This document shows, piece by piece, positions 3,759-26,567 of a stretch of 27,071 nt of DNA (position 1 is its first letter; each line of letters starts with the position of its first letter). Source of the stretch: Patescibacteria group bacterium (GTDB taxonomy: Bacteria; Patescibacteriota; Gracilibacteria; Absconditabacterales; Absconditicoccaceae); the NCBI GenBank assembly GCA_017992195.1, contig JAGOPC010000011.1:1-27071 (forward strand). Direction: 5' to 3'. The position numbers and the translations under genes are program-made. The notes under the pieces were generated by a model. It was not told where the DNA came from. It was given only the letters and a program-made list of their open reading frames with translations, and ran no database searches.

Positions 3759-6047
3759 TTATTTCTTCTCTAAAAATCTCGCTTCTATCTTCCTCACACC
3801 AAACTTTTCGTTCTGGAATTTGACGACAGCGGTGTCACGTCGGACTTCGATGACTTCGCCGACACCGAAGAGTTTGTGCTTGACGATGTCGTGTTCGTTA
3901 AGATCAGTTTTCACCGCGTAACGGCTCGTTCAAAATCAGCCACCAGTTGATCTAGCACCAGAGGCAGCGGTCAGGTCGAACATCTTCTTGAGTTCTTCCG
4001 GAATCTCGTCAATGAAGCGTGATGACTGATTGTATTTGGTTTGTCATCGCTGCTTACGAGAGTTCGCATGTGAGAGGAAGAGATGGTCTTTAGCACGCGT
4101 GATAGCGACGTACATCAGACGTCTTTCTTCTTCCATCTCTGCATCGTCAAACGCTGCCTTCGGCAAAGGGAAGATGTTTTCTTCCAGTCAGACGAGGAAT
4201 ACGACCGAGAATTCGAGGCCTTTGCTGGCATGTACGCTCATGAGCTTGACGGCTTCGAGTTGTCCATCAGTATTCTCTTCGATATCTGTCATGAGCGTCA
4301 CCTCTTCGAGAAATTGGGTCAGAAGGACCATGCCATTTTGCGCATCTTCGACTTCGTCACTGTCATATCTCGAAGCTATATTTATGAGCTGACCGATATT
4401 TTCGTACTTTTCTTCACCGACTTCACGTCACTCAGCTTCTATCAGGTAATCCTTATATTTAATAGTTCTCACCAATTGCTCGATCAACTTTGCGGGCGTC
4501 AGCCCGTCTGCAGCCTGACGAAGAAACTTCATAGATGTCATAAACTGGCTGATCGCCTTCTGCGTGGACGGTCCTAAGACCACTGGAAGCATATCGATCT
4601 GTTCTGCGACATCCGAAAAGGTCGACTTGTTTTGCTGAGCGTACTCTTCGAGCTTCGCGACACTGTCGGTTCCGATCTTTCTTTTCGGCGTATTGATGAT
4701 TCTTTTCAGCGCTACGGAATCTCTGGGATTCAGCAAATATTTCAGATACGACATCACATCCTTTACCTCTTTTCTTTCGAAGAATTTGAAACCACCATAG
4801 ACCTTATACGGTATAGCTTCCTGGAGGAGTACCTGTTCAAAGACCGCAGATTGCGCATTAGTCCTGTAGAGGATGGCGAACTCAGCCCGAGACTTGTTCT
4901 TGTCGGTCTTGAGCTTTTTCATCAAATCGATGAGTGTCATCGCCTCATCGGTCTCATCACCATGGGTGAAGACCATGATTTTTTCGTCACCGGAACGGTG
5001 AGGTACGACAGTTTTGTCGTACTGGTTTTTGTTATGTTTGATGATGAAATTTCCCGCGTGAACGATATGCGGACGTGAACGATAGTTAGTTTGAAGTTTA
5101 AATATTTGAATATCAGGCCACACTTTTTTGACCTCGAGAAAGTTCTCCATCACCGCACCACGCCGGCGATAGATCGACTGGTAGTCATCACCGATAAAGG
5201 TAATATTCGCGCCACCACCGGTCAGCTGCTTCATCAATTCAAACTGAATTCGGTTGGTATCCTGCGCCTCATCCACAAGAATATAGCGAAATTTCTGCTG
5301 CCAGCGCTTCAAAATATCCGGATTATTTTTGAATATTAAATACGGGACCAGCAACAGATCGTCGAAATCGCACATGTTACACTCGTGAAATTTCTTCTCG
5401 TAGCGCTCGTAGATCATACCCATCGTCTGCTCGTAACCATCACTACCATGGCCAAACTGTTTCGCCGTGATTCCCTGTCATTTCAACTTTGAGATAAACG
5501 AGCGAGCCTCCCTCACCTCGACATCGTTTTCCATCTTCAGATCCTTAATAATCTCCTTCAGGATCGACTGTGCCTCCTGCTCATCGTAGACACCAAAACT
5601 GCCATTTCGCGGCAATCCCTCAGCGTTTTTCATCTCCTCCTTGAGGAATCTCAGAAACATCCCATGAAAGGTGCCAATCCGCTTAAATGATCAAGAGTGA
5701 AAACGAGGAAGAGATCAGACATTATTATCTGCAGCTTCATCGGAAATCATCTTATCAAAATCCATAACTTCTTCCGTCTTTCACACCTGCATTTTTTCCG
5801 AGATCTCCTCGGCTATCTTCACAAGTCTTTCCTTCATCTCATTCGCTGCCTTATTGGTGAATGTCACCGCCAGCACCTGATCGGATCTGACCTTTTTTTC
5901 AAACAGCAAGTATCAAATCTTGTATGTCAAAACTCTCGTTTTCCCTGAACCTGCACCCGCCAAGATAAGAGCTGAACTATCAGTATGTAAGGCAGCTTTC
6001 GTCTGCTCATCATTCAACTGTCCGCGTATATAATCCTTAATATCCAT
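3759..6047 (-). CDS. pcrA: ATP-dependent DNA helicase, PcrA/UvrD family (SF1)
   Basis: Single frame of 762 aa from ATG (6045-6047) to TAA (3759-3761), with 10 in-frame TGA and no TAA or TAG. Family motifs present: [69 protein letters not shown] (that G is a TGA), [15 protein letters not shown], and a C-terminal [10 protein letters not shown]. Confidence 0.92.
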
Positions 6048-6130
6048 GAGCTTTTTCAACGTATAATGAAACAAACGTTCTACTTCTAACGATATCTTCT
6101 TTTAATGCAATACCAGCGCATTTTTTACCA

Positions 6131-6158
6131 TTGCTTTATCGGCTAAAAATGATAAAAT
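6131..6158 (+). promoter_or_regulatory. sigma70-like promoter, TTGCTT-N16-TAAAAT
   Basis: -35 at 6131-6136 and -10 at 6153-6158, 23 nt upstream of the ATG at 6181. Confidence 0.5.
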
Positions 6159-6180
6159 GTCAATCTAAACGAAAAATATT

Positions 6181-6906
6181 ATGCAAAACATATATTCAAT
6201 CATACCATCGCCTCAAAATTGCTCTCTCGACCAGCTGCAAATCTATATGCTTTGCTTGCGTGCTATAGAATATACGATCAATAAAAAAACCGTATGTTTA
6301 GCCTCCCTGGGGATTCGCACAGAAGATAAGCATATCATGAAACAAGTAGTGGAGTCACTACGAGCTATGGGCTTCGGTGTACAGGAAAGAGAAGCTACTA
6401 ATTATGTGTACAGCGGGGCAAAGGCAAATAACAATGGTCGCCCCAGTTCTTTTTGGGCAGGGGGGCTCGACTATTACGAGATCACTTCGGCATTACGAAA
6501 GATTGCGTACTATATTACGCAACAGCCACCAAAAGGTGAGTATTCGATCAAGCGTATCCATGTCTTGATAGATAATGAGGATGGGACATTCAGTAATGAG
6601 TCTCTTCCGAATACGCTCATTGAAAAATCAGAGTTAAACCTTCCTACACTTACCGAATGTAAATGTCTCGCCCCAGATGGATCGTATCTCTGGATAAACT
6701 CCGAGGGGGAGATCTACTATTCAGAAGATATGGAAGGCATTCACCTAATGAAAGCAGAAAAGTACTGACAACCTCAATTAGTAAGTACAGAGTATCCCGG
6801 GTTTACCTGGGATTTTTTTATGGGAAAATGACTCAGTGATTATACTATATATAAAGCTAAAAAATGTGTTGACAATCCATGTCGAATGCATATGATAGAA
6901 CCCTAA
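6181..6906 (+). CDS. hypothetical protein; the end coordinate depends on how TGA 6766-6768 is read
   Basis: The standard-code ORF is 6181..6768 (195 aa) and ends in TGA. With TGA=Gly the frame continues through a second TGA (6829-6831) to TAA at 6904-6906. That extension crosses a strong terminator hairpin and the next gene's promoter. Confidence 0.5.
6794..6819 (+). terminator. rho-independent terminator
   Basis: Stem ATCCCGGG/CCTGGGAT (one G-U pair), loop TTTA, followed by T7. Confidence 0.7.
6869..6896 (+). promoter_or_regulatory. sigma70-like promoter, TTGACA-N16-TATGAT
   Basis: -35 at 6869-6874 and -10 at 6891-6896. This places the transcription start downstream of the ORF-track ATG at 6879, so ATG 6918 is the usable start. 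Confidence 0.6.
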
Positions 6907-6917
6907 AACTAAACAGA

Positions 6918-7349
6918 ATGAAAAAACTATTTATTACAATCGCAGCGTTCGCGACATTGAGCGCGATCACAGACAGCTTAACAGCAGCAGGCAAAACAGA
7001 TGCAAGCATCTCCCAGACCATTGAAGCCTACGGCAGGGTGCATTACCCGGACCAGTACACCGATGCAGCCAGCGAAGATGTACAGGCAGTGATGGACAAC
7101 CTGGATGAGGATGACAATGGTATCAGTATGAGCGTTGACGACGAAGGCAACCTTACTATTACCAGCGCGCACAGTGATGACCAGGCCGCAGATGTAACTA
7201 TGAGCGATGATGCCGGCGCGGGCGACGCAGTAACAGCTTTGTTTGCAACAGCAGCTGAGGAAACTACGGAAGCAACAAGCGCCGAAGTAAATGAGCCTGA
7301 AACAGCAGAAGCTGCAATACCGGACGGCGACGCAACAACTGAAGCGTAA
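6918..7349 (+). CDS. secreted acidic low-complexity protein (signal peptide)
   Basis: MKKLFITIAAFATLSAITDSLTAAG is a typical signal peptide. The remainder is rich in D, E, A and T. Stop is TAA. Local GC is visibly higher than in the flanks. Confidence 0.6.
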   Translation: MKKLFITIAAFATLSAITDSLTAAGKTDASISQTIEAYGRVHYPDQYTDAASEDVQAVMDNLDEDDNGISMSVDDEGNLTITSAHSDDQAADVTMSDDAGAGDAVTALFATAAEETTEATSAEVNEPETAEAAIPDGDATTEA

Positions 7350-8695: not shown

Positions 8696-9139
8696 ATGAA
8701 AACAAAAATCATCGTTGCGCTGGCGAATTCCAGTGTCGTGAAAAAAAGAGTCCAGCAGGAGCTGGAAGGCGTAAAATGCAGTACGCCGGCAGAAGTTGCA
8801 AACTGGCTGGGGAAGCTCAGCTACACTGATGAGCATCTCATCATCATCGTCGGTCATACCGGCGGGGTAGAGATAGCTGAGATGGTAGCGAAGCTGAGAA
8901 GCAAGACAGGGTTAAATCAAGATCCGATTGCAGGCTCAAAAAACCTGGAAGTACATTACTTCTCAAGCCAAATGCTGCAAAAAAGACATGAGACTCTATT
9001 CAACTCTCGGATAGAACGGCTCTATGGAAACCACACCGAAAACCTGATATTATTCCTACAGAAACAAACAGGGCATCTACACGAACACGTGGAACAGTTT
9101 GTCAAAGAAAACGAATTAGTTTTAGAATTTGCCGCCTAA
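8696..9139 (+). CDS. hypothetical protein (147 aa)
   Basis: ORF from ATG to TAA, followed by a terminator. No motif recognised. Confidence 0.55.
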   Translation: MKTKIIVALANSSVVKKRVQQELEGVKCSTPAEVANWLGKLSYTDEHLIIIVGHTGGVEIAEMVAKLRSKTGLNQDPIAGSKNLEVHYFSSQMLQKRHETLFNSRIERLYGNHTENLILFLQKQTGHLHEHVEQFVKENELVLEFAA

Positions 9140-15015: not shown

Positions 15016-15038
15016 CTTATTATAATTCCTTATTTCAA

Positions 15039-16070
15039 TCAGTCAAAGTACGTATTGACCGCGTCGACTAGCGGCTCATAATCCCTGATCAGCGCAACAA
15101 CATTCTTGAAGTCTCTATTTCCTACTAAGCCGTTCACATAGTTGAACAGATACTTTCTATATTCGATAACCGACTTGCCGATCTCATATTTCGTCACATC
15201 AAAGTTTTCTACTTCGTCCATCCATTGCTTATATGATGGTTGTGGAAATTTGTCGGTGAAATGAAGATTTTTGTTGTAATAATCGTACGAGATAATCATT
15301 AATTTGAGATGAAAAAGTATGATCTCACGACGTTCTTCAGGAGTGGGCTCGTGATTTACAAAAATTCGTGGATCGGCGATCGCAGCCTGGCCTATCATGA
15401 TTCAGTCTAGATTTTTCCTCAGTTCCAATGCTTGCTCGTAGGATTTCACTCCACCATTTCAAATGATCAGACATTGATCCCCGACAGCCTTCTTCACATC
15501 GTAAATATAGTCCCGATCAACCGAGCCCGAATGCGACTGCTTATAGGTCCTACCATGGATCGTGATCGTCTTGCAGTGCGGCGCAGCAGCGATGATAAAC
15601 TCTTTTTGCGCAGCCTTATCGTCATCAGTGAGGCCGGCACGGGTCTTGATACTAAAGGGCAGAGGAGCTACCGCATCTTTCAAACGCTTTATCAACTCCA
15701 ATGTTTTTTCTTTTTCCCTCATCATACCTGCACCACCTCCACACGCCATCACCTTTGGCGATGGGCAACCTATGTTGAGCTCGAGACCAGCGAATCCAGG
15801 ATATTTCGTGACGATATCTTTTGCGGTTGCGACCAAATCATCATGATCTCACCCGTAGATCTGCGCTATGGTCTGCGTCTCAAAATCGGTCTTAATAATA
15901 TGATGAACTAAGCGCTGAGGCTGGCGAATATAACCTTCCGCATTCATAAATTCGGTCCACATCCGCAACTTCGTATCAGGATCCTTATTATATTTCTCAA
16001 AAATCTGCTTCACGACGATGCGGTAAGCAGCATTAGTGATCCCATCCATCGGAGCAAGTCACATAATCAT
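15039..16070 (-). CDS. dus: tRNA-dihydrouridine synthase (Dus family)
   Basis: 343 aa in one frame from ATG (16068-16070) to TAA-type stop, with 4 in-frame TGA (16059, 15849, 15459, 15402). Family motifs present: LAPMDGITNAAYR, QIYGGD, LELNIGCPSPKV, SIKTRAG, ITIHGRT, IIGNGG, LDGIMIGQAAIADPRIF. Confidence 0.9.
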
Positions 16071-16077
16071 GCATCAG

Positions 16078-16105
16078 AGTATAGGGATTTTCTTTAGGAT
16101 CTCAA
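16078..16105 (-). promoter_or_regulatory. sigma70-like promoter, TTGAGA-N16-TATACT, predicted leaderless
   Basis: On the - strand: -35 at 16100-16105 and -10 at 16078-16083. The dus ATG starts 7 nt after the -10 box. Confidence 0.5.
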
Positions 16106-16109
16106 AGTA

Positions 16110-16139
16110 TAAAAAAAGCCCGACCTTATGCGGTCAAGC
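16110..16139 (-). terminator. rho-independent terminator
   Basis: On the - strand: stem GCTTGACC/GGTCGGGC (two G-U pairs), 6-nt loop, followed by T7-8. Confidence 0.6.
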
Positions 16140-16159
16140 TATTGAAAATCAATGACGTT

Positions 16160-16663
16160 TTACTTCTTTCGCTGTATTCGGATGCGTAGTTGTTGTTTTC
16201 CTGCGATAATAGCTGCTGAGGTAAAAGTACCCGCAAAGAGGAAGATCAATAGACCTATTACAAAGGTTATACATCCCTCTAAAACGGAGTAATTTCCTGT
16301 AGTATGTTCGGCAATCCACCGCCATAATGCCACTATACCCACGACTCCTATGAGAGCCGAAGTAACAACCCATCCTGCAGAGTCAAATGCCTTCTCGATA
16401 GAGATGACATATTCTTCCAACAGTTGCATTGCTCGTTCTTTAACGTAGCTAACGGGCATAATGCTCATCGCAAATATAGCTAGAAAGACAGCGCCACATG
16501 CGGACCAAACAAGAGTGATCATACCCCAAAACCGAGAATTGTGCAGAAGGTGGAAGGAGCCATATACTCCTACACAACACCCCAGACAAAATACGATTAA
16601 TGTCAGGCTTTCAGACAAATCTCTTGCTCTGAAATCATAATTAGTATGTAATTTCTGTATCAT
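16160..16663 (-). CDS. integral membrane protein (167 aa, about 4 TM)
   Basis: ORF from ATG to TAA with four long hydrophobic segments. It has its own promoter and terminator. Confidence 0.6.
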   Translation of the reverse strand: MIQKLHTNYDFRARDLSESLTLIVFCLGCCVGVYGSFHLLHNSRFWGMITLVWSACGAVFLAIFAMSIMPVSYVKERAMQLLEEYVISIEKAFDSAGWVVTSALIGVVGIVALWRWIAEHTTGNYSVLEGCITFVIGLLIFLFAGTFTSAAIIAGKQQLRIRIQRKK

Positions 16664-17944: not shown

Positions 17945-18256
17945 CTATCAATAGGCACCGCCTAATGCTCCTTTAGAAAGGCTGCAAAATGTACCATGAA
18001 TAGACTGTGAGATTCGATCCTTATAAGACATCATAAACCTTCCTTTTTGAGGAACGTAGTCGCTCACAGAGAATCTCGCCCGTGTACCCATAACGGGAAT
18101 GTATGTTGTTTGTTTTTTTCTTTCCTCACGGCGGATAGCAGCGAGTCGTTCTTTTTCTTTTAAAATGGCTTCGGTAAAAGCATCAAGCTTTACACGCGTA
18201 AAGGTAATGATACGCTTACGGTACTTCTTCTTTTTAGTTGTGGTGTGTGCGTTCAT
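17945..18256 (-). CDS. small basic hypothetical protein (103 aa)
   Basis: ATG at 18254-18256, downstream of a consensus promoter. The N-terminal half is rich in K and R. The standard stop TGA (17948) is immediately followed by TAG (17945). Confidence 0.5.
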
Positions 18257-18283
18257 ACAGTGGTGAATTTTTGGTGTCCGAAA

Positions 18284-18311
18284 ATTATAGCCAAGCAAAA
18301 CCAATTGTCAA
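18284..18311 (-). promoter_or_regulatory. sigma70-like promoter, TTGACA-N16-TATAAT
   Basis: On the - strand: -35 at 18306-18311 and -10 at 18284-18289. It abuts the UPF0489 stop codon. Confidence 0.6.
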
Positions 18312-18312
18312 T

Positions 18313-19044
18313 CTAAGAAAGCAGTTTCCTGATAATCTCCAGAGCGCGAGTTTGATCGATAAAATAAGGAGAAGTCGCAATCGTAACAACAGCGGCAGAG
18401 GAGATAAGCTGCTTTAGCAGGCTGATTTTATGATCTATGTCCGTTTCATGAGCGAAAAAATCTATGTCGATATCTACGATATAAGATCATAGAGCGTAGT
18501 TCATAGATCACAGATTTTGTACCACCTCTTCTAATGTAAACTCGGTTCTTATCTGAACGCACTCATGAATAAGTCATGAGCGAAGAGCGGGCTGGATGAA
18601 AGAGGCTATCTGCGTCTTGGTGTTCACATATTCAGAAATATAATCGAGATCTCATTGCCTTTCCTGATCGATTCGTTCCGCAGGCTCGTTCATATCGGCG
18701 TGCTGATCGATGTGGAGGAGAGTCATTCACTCTGTAATTATTTTGTTGCGCAACGCTTCATATCGAAAGTAAAGAGCGTGGTTGTGATTGTCGGTGATGT
18801 AGATGGTCTTATTATGGCTCACTATTCTCAGCAATGATTTCAATCCCTTGCACGGTACAAGCTTACCATCTTCAATCTCTTCAAAAACGATATTTTCTCA
18901 CAAAAGGAGATCATCCACAGTTCAGTCCACTACTTGCGCTATGTGCAATTTTCCGTGTGATCACAAAGCCATTCTTTCGACATAGGAGATCGCATTATTT
19001 CCTACTGGCTCGGTGAGTCGGGTCTCATGTGTATAAAAGTTCAT
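18313..19044 (-). CDS. UPF0489 family protein (C5orf22-like, putative metal-dependent hydrolase fold)
   Basis: 243 aa from ATG (19042-19044) to TAG (18313-18315), with 8 in-frame TGA and no TAA or TAG (checked triplet by triplet). It is absent from the ORF track. Its motif series ITDNHNHALYF / LLHIDQHADM / IVDIDIDFF / VTIATSP parallels VVEDHQEVLPF / FLHFDSHPDL / VLDIDLDFF / VTIARSS of UPF0489 proteins as I recall them. Confidence 0.75.
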
Positions 19045-19066
19045 TACTTTCGATCGCTAGGTAAAA

Positions 19067-19855
19067 TTACGAAGATTTAGTCCTTGCTCCACTGGTATGT
19101 TTTGTGCGAGGAGTTTGTGTTCTTTTTGAGTGTCTTGATTTTGGATGAATAGGTTTAGGCGAAGCAACTTTTTCTATTTTACCTTTTGCTTTGCTGAGTT
19201 TTTTTGCTTTGTAGTATTCAGAAAGATTGTAGCAGAGTTCGGCAAGCATCCGCTGCTCATGTCGAGAGATAATGTCGGCGTACTTGTGCCCCTCACGAAT
19301 GTTTGCGACATCAATGCTGATCGTAAAACCGTAGGTGTCCTTTCCCTTTCGGACGGCACCAAAGATATTTTTATAGAGCATCGTGAAGTCAAGTTTCTTC
19401 GTATACTGAAGCATGAGCATCTGTTTTTCGTAGTCTTCCCTATTCAGAATAATGTCAGCTTTGATGTGATGAGAGAGGACATTACGGCAGAAGAAAATGA
19501 TTTTCTGGAAGGCTGGGAACTGGCCATCGAGGAGCTCTTTGAGAAATCTTTCGAACTGGTCGTCCTGCTGCATAAGATCCTTCATCGATGAAAAAACTCA
19601 TCTCAGACCGCTGATCGTCGATAGGTACCCGAAAATATTTTTCTTATCAGGATGCTTATGAATATCCTCAAGAATCTTTTTGATCATGTTCGTATTGAGC
19701 ATCATGCCGGTAGTCTCGCCGGTAGAGATACGGATCGTCTCCTCAACATTCATCTTGCCATCGGTTTTTATACGATGGTCAAGAAACATCGACAGCGACA
19801 AAAATTTGTAGTAGCCTTGCAGAAGCGTGATCTGTGAGAGGGCAGGGGAAGCCAT
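19067..19855 (-). CDS. HEPN-like (Rx4H) / Abi_2-like protein with a basic C-terminal tail
   Basis: 262 aa from ATG to TAA, joining ORFs 19598..19855 and 19067..19585 across TGA 19598. It contains FFCRNVLSHH, which fits Rx4H as in HEPN and AbiD/F-type proteins. The C-terminus is rich in K, R, S and T. It ends 22 nt before the UPF0489 start with no promoter in between. Confidence 0.5.
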
Positions 19856-19882: not shown

Positions 19883-19911
19883 ATTATAAAGGCATGGAAT
19901 AACTGATAAGT
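19883..19911 (-). promoter_or_regulatory. possible promoter (TATAAT -10 with a weak -35)
   Basis: On the - strand, TATAAT lies at 19883-19888. The -35 region reads only ACTTAT or TTATCA. Confidence 0.3.
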
Positions 19912-20560: not shown

Positions 20561-21334
20561 CTAGACGGAAATATCATAGCTATGTTTCTTAATAATCTCC
20601 TTAATCGTCGTCGCCAATTTCTCATCTATCCCACGCGCGATCCTATAGAGTCTGTTGATACTGGTATGATATTTTCACTGACGAAGCACGAAGACAACAC
20701 ACTCCCGATCGAGGCTTTTCTGGTACTTCTTCAGTGCCTTCTTGATGAGTTCATAACGATAAGTATCATCACTACCATCGAGACTGTAGAGAGTTTCTAG
20801 TATAGAGAGAATCACATTCGTCACCGTAAAACTATGGCCTCATACGTAGAGTTTTGTCGTATACGGAACAATTTTCTTTAAAAATGATTTTCACTCCGAC
20901 TTCATAGTTTTATAACGAATCTTTTTATCACCAACGAGCGTCTCCTGGGCCTGCTTCTTTTCGTCGAGCACATCGACCGCTTCAGGCGCATCATAGTTCA
21001 TCATATGAAGCTCGAGGGCTTTGAGACCGATGATCGTTCGTCCGGTATTCGCATAGGTCTGACAGTGCTTTCTGAGTATCTGCCGATAAAATCTCTGGAT
21101 GATCTGTGCACTGTCAGGCGACTGATCGGGCGAGGTCACATAGAGCATATCTTTTCTGAGCGACAAAATATGTCACTTATTTTTGAGTTGATGCAGGAGC
21201 TTATAGAGTTTTGTGTCGCTATAGGCGTCATCCATACAACTTTGAAGTGTTTTTTTGACGAAGTCAATGTCGATAAGTTTATCGACACTTTTTGATAGTT
21301 TCTCCACAACAATGTTGAAATAGCTTTTCCTCAT
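20561..21334 (-). CDS. AbiEi-like winged-helix protein (putative antitoxin or regulator), with no AbiEii partner present
   Basis: One frame from ATG 21332-21334 (alternative start TTG 21388) to TAG 20561-20563, with 4 in-frame TGA (21173, 20891, 20840, 20675). The N-terminal LYKLLHQLKNKGHILSLRKDMLYV resembles the AbiEi wHTH signature L..L.k.G.l.r..rG.Y. The assignment is from memory of the family pattern only. Confidence 0.35.
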
Positions 21335-21432
21335 ATAGTAGGATGCACCTAGGGAATAGAATAAATAAAAAATATCCTTTCTTCCCAAAAAATCAAGGCG
21401 AACTTTCCCAAAGAATTTGAATGAATTGTCTG

Positions 21433-22498: not shown

Positions 22499-23566
22499 AT
22501 GTTTTCACCTACTATCCCTTATAATGATCTGCCTTTGCTGCCAGGAAGCTATAATTTTCATAAACCCGAGCATATACAACTTGCCCTGCGCGCGAACCAA
22601 GCGCTAGGTAAGCTTGACGGATTATCACTTCTTTTGCCTGACTATACGCTACTTATAAGTCCTTTACTGGCAAAGGAATCAGTAGCCAGTAATGCTATAG
22701 AAAATATCAATACCACCACTATTGAATTCTTACAAAAAGAGGCGACGGGATCTAAACTGTCAGGAGCGGAAAAAGAGGTTGCATATTATCGTACAACTCT
22801 TCTTCAGGGGATGAGTCTTCTCGAAAAGGAAGGAGGTATTTCAACGAATATGCTTATACATTTACAAGCGATCATAGAACCCGATAAGACAGGTATAAGA
22901 AAAATCCCTGGTACTGTTATCGCGAATAGCACGGGAGAAGTTCTATATACCCCACCCGAGGGAGAACACAAAATCAGAGATCTTCTGGCAAATCTTGAAA
23001 GTTGGATCAACAGCAATGATGGTATTGATTCTCTTATAAAGATGCCCGTTATTCACTATCAGTTTGAGTCGATCCACCCATTTTACGATGGTAATGGAAG
23101 AATAGGAAGAGTCCTCATGATGCTCTATCTTATGCTCACAAAAAAAATACAAAAACCTGTATTATTTCTCAGTTCATATATCCTTCAACACAAGCAAGAG
23201 TACTACCTATCTTTAAAAAGAGGTGAAGAGGAGCATAATTATGATTCTATTATTACCTTTCTTCTTACCGGTATCATAGAGCAAGCACAGGTGACACAAG
23301 AGAAAATAATAGCCATAAACGCATGCCTGAATAAGTATATAGGGATCTTCCAGCAACTTAAACTGAGAGATTACCATCTTCTTGCTACAACATTTTTTAG
23401 ATCCGCCTTCGTTTCGATAAATACGCTTACCGAAATCAGCAACCTTTCGAGACAATCTCTTTCTCTTTACATAAAAAAACTTGAGGACAAAGGTGTAGTC
23501 AAAACAATTAAAGTGTGATCACACAAGTTAGCATTTATACCTGAGTTTATTGAGCTGATAAAGTAA
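22499..23566 (+). CDS. fic: Fic/DOC family AMPylase with Fic_N region, internal inhibitory motif and C-terminal wHTH
   Basis: It has the Fic motif HPFYDGNGRIGR. The N-terminal SNAIEN fits the (S/T)xxxE(G/N) inhibitory helix. The C-terminal LTEISNLSRQSLSLYIKKLEDKGVV is wHTH-like. The standard stop TGA (23516) is read as Gly, giving a further 15 aa (GSHKLAFIPEFIELIK) up to TAA at 23564-23566. Confidence 0.88.
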
Positions 23567-23700: not shown

Positions 23701-24666
23701 ATGGCTAAAAAGATTCCTACGCGGAAAAAGGTAGCATGAGCAATATTAGGAACGGGAATATTAGGAGGCTGATTTTTAGCTTATCCTAGCTTTATGAGCC
23801 AGCAAAAAGCATCTTTAATAGATGCTGCTACAAACTGTAAAACTATATATGAATTTTCATGAAACCATTCTGTGTATCATTTTAAATGAGAACAAACTGA
23901 ACTAAACATAGAACTAAAAAATCTTTCAGAGGGAACAATATGAACAACGGATGAGCATAATCATAGTACAAGAAATTGTAGAATAATGTACATGTATGAC
24001 AATACCAGCACTGGCTATCAAAATATAACCTGACTGATAGCAAAATGAGAAAGCAGCTTCTTAACTATCCCTGTACAAACTCATTCTATAGGCAATACAG
24101 GTAAAATTTCAGTAGATTTAGTTTGCACAGATCAACGGAGTAATAGTTGCAGCCCTGAAGGGAAAGCATTCCTAGCAGACTATAAGGAAATTGATCTAAG
24201 TGGTTTAAGAATATTTATAGTATCGCAAATACAAGGAGTCGACAATTTGAACAATAATATTAAAGATTTTAAAAAAGAACTCTGACGAAAGAACATGAAG
24301 GCGATATCTGTGTATCCTAGTGTTTCCATAGGTAATCCTGGATATGCAGTAATTTTATATAACGAAAAACGCTTTAACGCACTTTGACCAGAGTTAGCGT
24401 TTATAAGCAGGAAACTACAGTTGAGATTTTCTCATTTTAACTATATAGTGTCATGAGCAATCAATGATGAAAACTTTAATGAGCATTTTTGAAATCTTAA
24501 CGACTGCACCCTCCCAGACGATAAAGGCAAATTGGCTTGCTCTTTAGACGGCTACTATTTTGATAACATAGCAGATAATTTTGTTTTCAGTAAAAGAATG
24601 CTAATGAATGATACAAATTTAGAAACTATTGATTTCATTGTAGATATTCCAAGAGTGAAGCCTTAA
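23701..24666 (+). CDS. membrane-anchored hypothetical protein (321 aa), visible only with TGA=Gly
   Basis: The ORF track reports no ORF of 60 aa or more across about 1 kb here. Frame 1 from ATG 23701 to TAA 24664-24666 has 11 TGA and no TAA or TAG in a visibly AT-rich stretch (checked codon by codon). It has an N-terminal TM (VAGAILGTGILGGGFLAYP), then a polar domain containing several Cys. Confidence 0.7.
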
Positions 24667-26567
24667 CCTCTCTCAGCTAACTCCAACCACCTAGTCTCTT
24701 TCTCGCCTAATACCTTCGTAATTTCACCCATTTCCTTACCTAATTTCTTCATCTTATCACCATCTAGCATCTCTCCCTGATACATGAAATTGATCTCATC
24801 AACTCTTTTTTCGAGGACGGAAATTTCTTTGCCAAGGGTGTCCATTTCGAGCTTTTCTTTGTAGGAAAGCTTTTTCTTTTCAGGGAGGACGGCGGCTTCT
24901 TTCGTGGCTTCCTGCTTTTGTCTTTGGGCCTGCAGTTCTTTTCTTTCGAGTTGTTGTTGCTCGGATCTGTGAGCCACGTATTCACTGTAGGATCCTCGGA
25001 AATCTGTGACTTTGCCGTCTCATTCGAATGCAAAGATATGGTCGACGATACGGTCCATGAAAAATCTGTCATGAGAAATCACTATTAGGCAGCCCGTATA
25101 GTCAAGGAGGAACTCCTCAAGGATCGCGAGGGTGACGAGGTCGAGATCGTTAGTAGGTTCATCGAGTATCAGGAAGTTTGGATTTTTGATAAGAACCATG
25201 AGTAAGTGGAGACGTCTTTTTTCACCTCAGCTCAGTGTGCTTGCGAAAGCTTGTTGTTGAGCGGGGGAGAAGAGAAAGCGTTCGAGCATTTGTGAGGCGG
25301 TGAGTTTCTTTCATTTTGCGACGAAAATATATTCGGCAACATCTCTGACGACGTCGATGACTCTTTTATCGGTTTGGAAGAGGGATTGCGTTTGCTGGTA
25401 GTGACCCATGTAGATAGTCTTTCACTGTTGGATATCGCCGCTGTCGGCCGGTTCTTCGCCGGTGAGGATATTCACGAAGGTGGACTTTCAGACACCGTTT
25501 TTGCCGATGATACCAACGCGTTCGCCATGTCTAAAGTCATGTGAAAAGTCACGGAGAATAGGCTTATCACCAAAGGATTTTTTGAGGTGGTGGATCTTGA
25601 GGATCTTGTCACCCATTCTTCTTTGGTTCACTTCGATGGTGAGTTTTTTGGCTTTTTCATTCAGTATGCTTTTGCTAGCTTTGTAGGTATCTTCCAGCTC
25701 TTCAAAATCTTTGATCCTCGCATACTGCTTCGTTCTTCTAGCGCCGGGAGCTCTGCGCATCCGGTCAAGCTCGTGCCTTCGGAGCTGTTTCATATTGTGG
25801 ACGGTTTTTTGCTCGAGCTCTTCACGCTGCGCTTTCTTTTCGAGAAAGATTTGATAGTTACCGTTGTATGAGTGGATCTTTCCTCTGTCGAGTTCGAGGA
25901 TATTGGTACAGACGCGTTCGAGAAAGTAACGATCGTGCGTGACGAGAAGTAACGTTAAATGAGATTGTTTTAAGTAATTTTCCAGCCGTTCGATCATGTC
26001 GAGATCAAGGTGATTAGTAGGCTCATCTAATATGAGGAAATCAGGTTCATCGAGGAGCGCCTTTGCAAGAGCGACACGTTTTGCTTCACCTCATGAGAGT
26101 GATCACATAGGGGTGGTGAGATGTTGCGTGAGATTGAGCTGACCGATGATAGTCTTCACTTTCACTTCGTACTCCCGGGCATGGGCTTCTTCGATCTGGT
26201 GGAGGATCTTTTGCATCTCGTCTTCGCTGTGGTTTGGATCGAGGAGAAGAGCCTCGTAGTGTCTGATGAGTTGTCATAGTTCGTTCTCATGCGTGAAGAG
26301 CGCTTCAAGAACAGGCATATTTGGATCTACTTGAAAATCTTGAGCGAGAAAAGAGACGCGCACATTCTTCGTGAAAGTAATATCGCCCGCACTTCACTCA
26401 AGCTGACCCATGATGAGCTTGAGAAGTGTAGTTTTACCTGCGCCGTTCTGCGCAACGAGAGCAACCTTCTGTCACTTTTCGATGGCAAAATTAACATCCT
26501 GAAGCAGGGGTTTCCCGGTGAATGACTTATAGAGCTTTCTGACGAGGAGGTATTGCATGAGGTTCAT
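24663..26567 (-). CDS. uup: ABC-F family ATPase with C-terminal coiled-coil domain (Uup-like)
   Basis: 634 aa in one frame from ATG (26565-26567; alternative 26558) to TAA (24663-24665), with 10 in-frame TGA. It has two NBDs: QNGAGKTT and GKNGVGKST (middle G is TGA 25488). LSGGE occurs twice (a G is TGA at 26091 and at 25227). LILDEPTN occurs twice. The C-terminus is a charged coiled coil. Confidence 0.92.

Follow-up and report, generated by a model that had tools for sequence, protein, structure and literature searches.

A peptide-arginase homologue and a candidate HEPN-like protein encoded side by side in a TGA-recoded genome of the Gracilibacteria

Two adjacent genes on the minus strand of contig JAGOPC010000011.1, from a Patescibacteria group bacterium, raise the question of whether they form a new bacterial conflict system or an ordinary chromosomal operon. 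The upstream one (gene 1) encodes a protein with a HEPN-type R-[N/H]-x3-H motif, and the downstream one (gene 2) encodes a member of the UPF0489 family. The original prediction, made from the letters of the 27,071-nt stretch analysed here (the window), proposed that the pair is an effector with its modulator, that is, an undescribed toxin or conflict cassette. We examined this proposal with profile searches, structure models and gene neighbourhoods in other genomes. We think it rather probable that the two genes, both chromosomal and inherited vertically, form a bicistronic operon specific to their lineage, and not a mobile conflict cassette. The elements of the pair, with residues of gene 2 matched to those of its structurally characterised relative OspR, are:

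19067..19855, minus strand: gene 1, open reading frame (ORF) of 262 amino acids (aa) with TGA read as Gly, containing one TGA at 19598-19600
19469..19486, minus strand: codons of R124-N125-V-L-S-H129 of gene 1 (within CRNVLSHH), R-[N/H]-x3-H, HEPN-type signature, from alignment and model
19045..19066, minus strand: intergenic spacer ttttacctagcgatcgaaagta, 22 nt from the gene 1 stop to the gene 2 ATG, from sequence and consensus scan
18313..19044, minus strand: gene 2, ORF of 243 aa with eight TGA codons read as Gly, PF12640
18778..18792, minus strand: codons of D85-N-H87-N-H89 of gene 2, H87 aligned with OspR (8BRP) His12, an Mn ligand
18694..18714, minus strand: codons of H111-I-D113-Q-H115-A-D117 of gene 2 (DxHxD), D113, H115 and D117 corresponding to OspR Asp39, His41 and Asp43
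18454..18474, minus strand: codons of D191-I-D193-I-D195-F-F197 of gene 2, D193 and D195 corresponding to OspR Asp165 and Asp167

The window belongs to a genome that reads TGA as Gly (code 25), of the Gracilibacteria/Absconditabacteria type. When TGA was read as sense, the summed length of ORFs of at least 100 aa in the window approximately doubled, from 6996 to 15120 aa. In the ABC-F gene at 24663-26567, TGA codons stand in two motifs, the LSxGE of the ABC signature and the GVxKST of Walker A. Similarly, three well-aligned TGA-encoded residues of gene 2, 41, 49 and 106, are Gly in 23, 26 and 28, respectively, of 31 homologues from Peptostreptococcaceae, which use the standard code. We searched the window for tRNA-Gly(UCA) or other structured RNA and found none. 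Code-25 translation confirmed both minus-strand ORFs of the pair as first described, with their lengths, the TGA codons of gene 2 and the gap between them. The existing records differ from this translation. Gene 1 is represented in public only by a 172-aa fragment (P0003, hypothetical protein KBC03_04940; window 19067-19585, minus strand), which starts past the in-frame TGA, and the record was thus evidently read with code 11. In the protein collection, gene 2 is present as P0030 and has Trp at all eight TGA positions, as expected of a code-4 translation.

We found that gene 2 matches Pfam PF12640 with E=9e-14 (52.6 bits; cutoff 27). The view that this family, UPF0489, has no established function is outdated. 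In precomputed annotations PF12640 is now labelled FlmR_OhkR_N, and its characterised bacterial members are Mn-dependent peptide arginases, which convert Arg to Orn in the precursors of RiPPs, peptides that are made on the ribosome and modified after translation (PMC10028609, PMC12707348, PMC12703449). These members are OspR, for which a crystal structure is available (8BRP; PMC10028609), BipC (PMC12707348), and FlmR and OhkR (PMC12703449). Gene 2 also matched NCBIfam NF052474, 'peptide arginase, FlmR/OhkR family', with E=4e-15, but the score was 56 bits against an equivalog cutoff of 350.

The binuclear Mn site of OspR is held by His12, Asp39, His41, Asp43, Asp165 and Asp167 (PMC10028609). 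The motif series noticed in gene 2 at the outset (DxH at D85-N-H87, HxDxHxD at H111-D117 and DxDxDFF at D191-F197) is indeed present, and the equivalents of all six ligands (H87, D113, H115, D117, D193 and D195) are invariant in 78-80 of 80 gene 2 homologues. D193 and D195 were found in every one of the 80, while the D, N and H of the first motif are conserved in 78 out of 78 homologues aligned there, the remaining two being gapped at this place. A sequence search of the PDB with gene 2 returned 8BRP. The AlphaFold2 (AF2) model of gene 2, built with 33 homologues, had a predicted local distance difference test score (pLDDT) of 95 and a predicted template modelling score (pTM) of 0.92; Foldseek placed OspR 8BRP first (E=6e-6, probability 1.0), and the next matches were agmatinase, metformin hydrolase and arginase. 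The reading of the metal site as arginase-type is thus upheld by the six conserved ligands and by OspR being the top structural match. Judged by its sequence and predicted structure, gene 2 is a ureohydrolase-fold member of the peptide-arginase branch with a predicted binuclear Mn site.

Gene 2 shares with OspR, FlmR, OhkR and BipC the PF12640 domain, the six Mn ligands, the DxHxD and DIDxD motifs and an OspR-like fold. Its first motif, however, is DNHNH, in contrast to the EEHxE of the RiPP arginases (PMC12707348). In comparison with OspR, gene 2 is about 65 aa shorter on the C-terminal side and is extended at the N-terminal side by about 80 conserved, beta-rich residues. The context of gene 2 is of housekeeping type, with no genes for RiPP precursors or maturases nearby, and its activity is predicted. 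The differences from the classical ureohydrolases are larger. Arginase, the agmatinase SpeB and metformin hydrolase share with gene 2 the alpha/beta fold and the predicted binuclear metal chemistry (Foldseek E 1e-3 to 8e-3), but the motifs of gene 2 differ from the GGDHS, DAHxD and SxDxDxxDP of arginase (PMC10028609), the protein is much shorter, and residues that would hold the backbone of free arginine are not evident.

These similarities suggest that gene 2 hydrolyses a guanidino group, most likely that of peptidyl or protein Arg, giving Orn and urea. One substitution argues against this activity: Asn86 of gene 2 takes the place of OspR Glu11, a residue with a proposed part in positioning the guanidinium. 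As gene 2 falls into a non-RiPP subfamily that is compact, of housekeeping type and marked by the DNHNH motif and the N-terminal extension, it may act on another substrate than the RiPP arginases do.

Relatives of gene 2 were found in at least 242 species-representative genomes, including those of cultured Peptostreptococcaceae (Romboutsia, Terrisporobacter, Peptostreptococcus and Intestinibacter), and we fetched 80 of these genome loci to analyse their neighbourhoods. The same-strand genes upstream of gene 2 depend on the clade and are of housekeeping type: PBP1 with Gmk or Cmk in Gracilibacteria, and lysyl-tRNA synthetase (LysRS) with HolB in one SR1/'Peribacteria' clade; a tRNA dihydrouridine synthase (Dus) gene is also found nearby. 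In about 22-26 Peptostreptococcaceae genomes, the gene 2 orthologue belongs to a conserved standard-code operon, where it comes after the genes for an S-adenosylmethionine (SAM) methyltransferase (PF10672) and an RluA-type pseudouridine synthase (PF00849) and before that for a SEC-C-motif protein (for example in L021, L025, L030, L031, L039, L042 and L049, around 4400-7200). The conservation of this operon suggests a role of the gene 2 subfamily related to RNA or the ribosome. No RiPP maturase-type neighbours were seen around gene 2 relatives in the 80 loci. PF12640 proteins have so far been characterised only as RiPP peptide arginases; here they appear as a large compact subfamily with an intact predicted Mn site and a different first motif. 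Since this subfamily is present in cultured, genetically tractable Peptostreptococcaceae, the role of a non-RiPP peptide-arginase homologue can be tested there.

Gene 1 belongs to a family of proteins of about 230 aa that has no prior description. By inspection, gene 1 has neither a transmembrane segment nor a signal peptide, and its C-terminal tail is disordered and rich in Lys and Arg. Its sequence gave no match to Pfam, NCBIfam, PADLOC or PDB sequences. A word-indexed search retrieved 29 relatives, and an exhaustive profile search retrieved 146 clusters at 50% identity, many of which are TGA-truncated fragments. As judged by comparison of ORF lengths, every gene 1 locus long enough to assess reads TGA as sense (L001-L008, L011, L046, L066 and L087-L111). 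Given that the gene 2 family also occurs in standard-code Firmicutes, the gene 1 family is seemingly confined to recoded lineages. The family carries a HEPN-like catalytic signature, and annotation with code 11 leaves its members invisible or truncated.

The motif CRNVLSHH, which had prompted the assignment of gene 1 to HEPN RNases, is present, and its Arg and His define the family. R124, N125 and H129 are invariant among the 25 closer members, and in an alignment of 46 full-length members, which diverge to identities as low as about 16%, the motif R and H are the sole invariant residues. The residue following the R is N, with H in two exceptions among the family sequences displayed. On its own, a bare Rx4H is no commoner than by chance and uninformative: it occurs in 13 of 29 ORFs of the window and in 23% of 912 proteins of at least 150 aa from the loci studied (R[NHD]x3H occurs in 6% of the same proteins). 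The Rx4H of gene 1 thus has weight only because it is invariant throughout the family. We modelled P0001, an orthologue 80% identical to gene 1, with AF2 (pLDDT 86, pTM 0.78). In this model R123 and N124 close the helix 98-126 at its C-terminal end, and H128 lies in the loop that follows. The defining mark of HEPN proteins is a conserved Rx4-6H in which the R is followed by a polar residue (N, D or H) (PMC3710099), and their motif has the same placement at a helix end and in the following loop (PMC3710099, Anantharaman et al. 2013). We infer that the motif helix of gene 1 is equivalent to helix 3 of the HEPN domain.

Profile searches with the 46 members point weakly in the same direction. PF18736 (pEK499_p136) and PF09509 (Ymh), both HEPN families according to PMC3710099, are the only Pfam families matched by more than one member, two members each and weakly; Pfam, NCBIfam, PADLOC and PHROGs scans gave nothing significant and nothing else recurrent, and the 46-member profile had no match among PDB sequences. 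Of the HMM searches proposed with the original prediction, the one for gene 2 thus identified PF12640, and those for gene 1 gave no significant HEPN or Abi_2 match.

Several observations weigh against gene 1 being a HEPN protein. The PF18736 and PF09509 matches (best E=0.018 and 0.1, respectively) are each insignificant alone and below threshold. Foldseek with the gene 1 model gave a best E of 2 in the PDB, with no HEPN entry listed, and of 0.3 in BFVD, so the HEPN fold that had been anticipated was not recovered. No acidic residue upstream of the motif is conserved in the 46 members, and a large alpha/beta insert follows the motif rather than lying between helices 2 and 3. Foldseek has low power for all-helical bundles, and the lack of a HEPN fold match is therefore not decisive. 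Gene 1 has in common with HEPN RNases such as Ymh and pEK499_p136 the motif, its modelled position at the helix end and a core of long helices, and it differs from them in the insert, in the missing acidic residue, in the absence of a significant profile or structure match, and in its chromosomal, syntenic, housekeeping context. We conclude that gene 1 is probably HEPN-like, at a level of belief somewhat above even, and a putative member of the superfamily. As such a protein it would act as a metal-independent RNase or RNA-binding protein, and its Lys-rich disordered tail may assist nucleic-acid binding. In HEPN proteins the active site is usually composite, formed by both subunits of a dimer.

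We then compared the distribution of the two genes. Gene 1 profiles were run against all ORFs of the loci, with TGA read as sense. Gene 1 was found in 5 of the 80 gene 2 loci (L007, L008, L011, L046 and L066), always directly upstream and on the same strand. The other 75 loci had no gene 1 within 6 kb, and a broader gene 1 profile detected no cryptic relatives near gene 2 in them. In the reverse direction we examined 33 gene 1 loci: four obtained through protein identity, 25 from metagenomes, and the linked ones. Most of them had no gene 2 within 5 kb. In the eight loci where the two genes are linked, they lie on the same strand and either overlap or are up to 127 nt apart. When gene 2 sequences were joined in a neighbour-joining tree, the linked copies fell on a few deep, long branches; the tree is not robust enough for counting independent origins. 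The recurrent HEPN-UPF0489 linkage that was expected of a cassette is thus not observed: the gene 2 loci outside these five have housekeeping neighbours. The absence of a HEPN fold match and of recurrent linkage, both named beforehand as findings that would speak against the cassette, is largely what we obtained.

Where the two genes are linked, their neighbours are mostly conserved as well. In L066 and L046 the whole block (the homologue of window 20561-21388, gene 1, gene 2, lipase_3 and Dus) is syntenic at 37-39% protein identity. In the window, the genes downstream of the pair include a class-3 lipase-like gene (PF01764; 16988-17845, minus strand) and Dus (15030-16373, minus strand). Lipase and Dus homologues follow the pair in L007, L046, L066 and L087, Dus alone does so in L008, and the annotation of L005 has both; this recurrence holds even at 48-58% identity. 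Synteny thus reaches well past gene 1 and gene 2. As the conserved block is wider than the pair, conservation of their adjacency is not clearly above general synteny. Two findings run counter to this: L011 and L108 keep the two genes abutting or overlapping amid entirely different flanks, and the pair is retained in L066 and L046 at so low an identity. Both are a hint that the adjacency has selective value. L006 presents the opposite case. It has a gene 1 orthologue with 51% identity and the same upstream synteny as the window, and a pilin-like ORF replaces gene 2.

Most of the 33 gene 1 loci have no gene 2. Instead, gene 1 is preceded there by DUF4012, SecDF or a HAD hydrolase and followed by Lgt, PilD or a membrane protein. 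DUF4012 is the commonest immediate upstream neighbour (13 loci; L088-L110), and Lgt was found near gene 1 relatives in eight loci. In the 'Peribacteria' loci L001-L004, the gene 1 relative (4699-5424 in L001) has SecDF on one side and the prepilin peptidase PilD on the other, with a gap of -1 to 2 nt. The ORF that follows gene 1 in L006 is type IV pilin-like (8874-8939; …FTLIEMLIVIVII). In the window, a 506-aa gene at 819-2339 on the plus strand clusters with DUF4012 proteins and lies about 17 kb from gene 1. Gene 1 relatives thus recur near genes for secretion, pili and lipoprotein processing.

The arrangement in the window itself is that of an operon. In a simple consensus scan, nothing resembling a promoter or a terminator turned up on the minus strand of the 22-nt spacer, in agreement with the original prediction. 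Outside the pair, two sites are of interest:

18311-18284, minus strand: perfect sigma-70 promoter TTGACA-16-TATAAT, from the consensus scan, directly past the gene 2 stop
19883..19909, minus strand: candidate promoter of the gene 1-gene 2 unit, read by eye and put forward as an inference only

The former drives the small gene that comes next and sets the 3' limit of the gene 1-gene 2 unit. The latter would comprise TATAAT at 19888-19883, 27 nt 5' of the gene 1 ATG, and TTATCA 15 nt farther upstream; owing to this 15-nt spacer it was missed by the consensus scan. With the short gap, no signal within it, and a perfect promoter after gene 2, the two genes plausibly form one transcription unit, and are probably co-transcribed in the lineage of the window.

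What the two proteins might do together can be weighed against this background. The proposal of a new two-gene conflict system, with gene 1 as HEPN RNase toxin or abortive-infection effector and gene 2 in the role of antitoxin, modulator or sensor, draws on the invariant R-[N/H]-x3-H, on the tight same-strand arrangement in the eight linked loci, on the survival of the pair with different flanks in L011, and on a Fic/DOC gene 2.6 kb away. In outline, the pair resembles the HEPN-MNT (HepT/MntA) type II/VII toxin-antitoxin pairs and Abi_2 (AbiD/AbiF), in that one of two closely spaced genes encodes a putative HEPN-motif protein. But the partner here is an arginase-fold enzyme and not a nucleotidyltransferase, and neither MNT nor any other known HEPN partner was found beside gene 1. 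The families are not co-distributed, gene 2 is exchanged for a pilin-like ORF in L006, and the neighbourhoods are stable, syntenic and of housekeeping type, with no link of gene 1 loci to restriction-modification, abortive-infection, CRISPR or toxin-antitoxin genes. We found no sign of mobility: both families were absent from 2.9 million viral contigs searched, and GC content across the region is flat, without anomaly. PADLOC matched neither gene, PHROGs gave no assignment, and neither Abi_2 nor a HEPN fold was detected in gene 1; the Fic gene is a separate insertion absent from syntenic relatives. Of all the readings considered here we give the conflict system the lowest probability and regard it as very improbable, and the claim of a cassette should be dropped. 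We consider it unlikely, though clearly less so, that gene 1 is no HEPN protein at all but a novel helical fold, whose Arg/His site has another role, perhaps in envelope, secretion or type IV pilus biogenesis. Such a protein would fit the fact that gene 1 matches no HEPN in structure, and none significantly by profile, as well as the unusual position of the insert, the missing acidic residue before the motif, and the recurrent neighbours DUF4012, SecDF, Lgt, PilD and the pilin-like ORF. It fits less well with the sole invariant residues being an Arg and a His spaced by four, with N or H after the Arg, at a helix end, which is exactly the HEPN signature, or with the only recurrent weak Pfam matches being to HEPN families; by inspection gene 1 also lacks a transmembrane segment and a signal peptide, and Foldseek has low power on helical bundles.

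The favoured account of a lineage-specific operon leaves room for the question of whether its two products cooperate. Because the two families occur mostly apart, functional coupling would be at most clade-specific. In such a clade, gene 1 and gene 2 may belong to one housekeeping pathway without any role in conflict: one possibility is Arg-to-Orn conversion by gene 2, with gene 1 itself or a common RNA-binding or ribosomal substrate as the target, and another is a part of both in RNA or protein maturation. The operon-like architecture, the adjacency kept at 37-39% identity and amid different flanks, the Peptostreptococcaceae operon with the RluA-type synthase and PF10672 methyltransferase, and the action of characterised relatives on peptide Arg residues (PMC10028609) are all in line with this. 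We nevertheless find coupling doubtful, more so than a non-HEPN nature of gene 1, since the whole block is syntenic in most linked loci, where adjacency need not mean coupling, and since the pair is broken in L006. The version in which the basic tail of gene 1 is the arginase substrate was rejected: the Arg fraction of the tail is alike in linked and unlinked members (0.10 and 0.08, respectively), and two linked orthologues are almost tail-less. The most specific proposal is a long shot. According to it, gene 1 would found a new HEPN-type RNase family of TGA-recoded bacteria (Gracilibacteria/SR1), coupled in one lineage, operonically and functionally, to a non-RiPP 'protein arginase', and Arg-to-Orn deguanidination of the gene 1 RNase, or of a shared RNA-binding or ribosomal target, would regulate RNA cleavage. 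If true, deguanidination-controlled RNA cleavage would amount to a novel regulatory logic, and peptide-arginase homologues would have their first housekeeping role. In the operon as we favour it, gene 2 would act, as a compact, housekeeping-type homologue of the peptide arginases, on a guanidino group.

Two other genes of the window deserve mention. The gene under the 18311-18284 promoter (17945-18311, minus strand) has an ATG at about 18255 and would encode a very basic protein of about 103 aa (MNAHTTTKKKKYRKR...), with no family assignment. The Fic/DOC gene (22499-23566, plus strand), which encodes Fic_N, Fic and a SoFic-like C-terminal winged helix-turn-helix, has the thioredoxin gene on one side and the ABC-F gene on the other. 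The syntenic loci, of which L005, L006 and L087 cover the thioredoxin-to-ABC-F interval, yielded no Fic homologue. This gene looks like a strain-specific insertion, and is a more plausible candidate for a conflict-type element than the gene 1-gene 2 pair.

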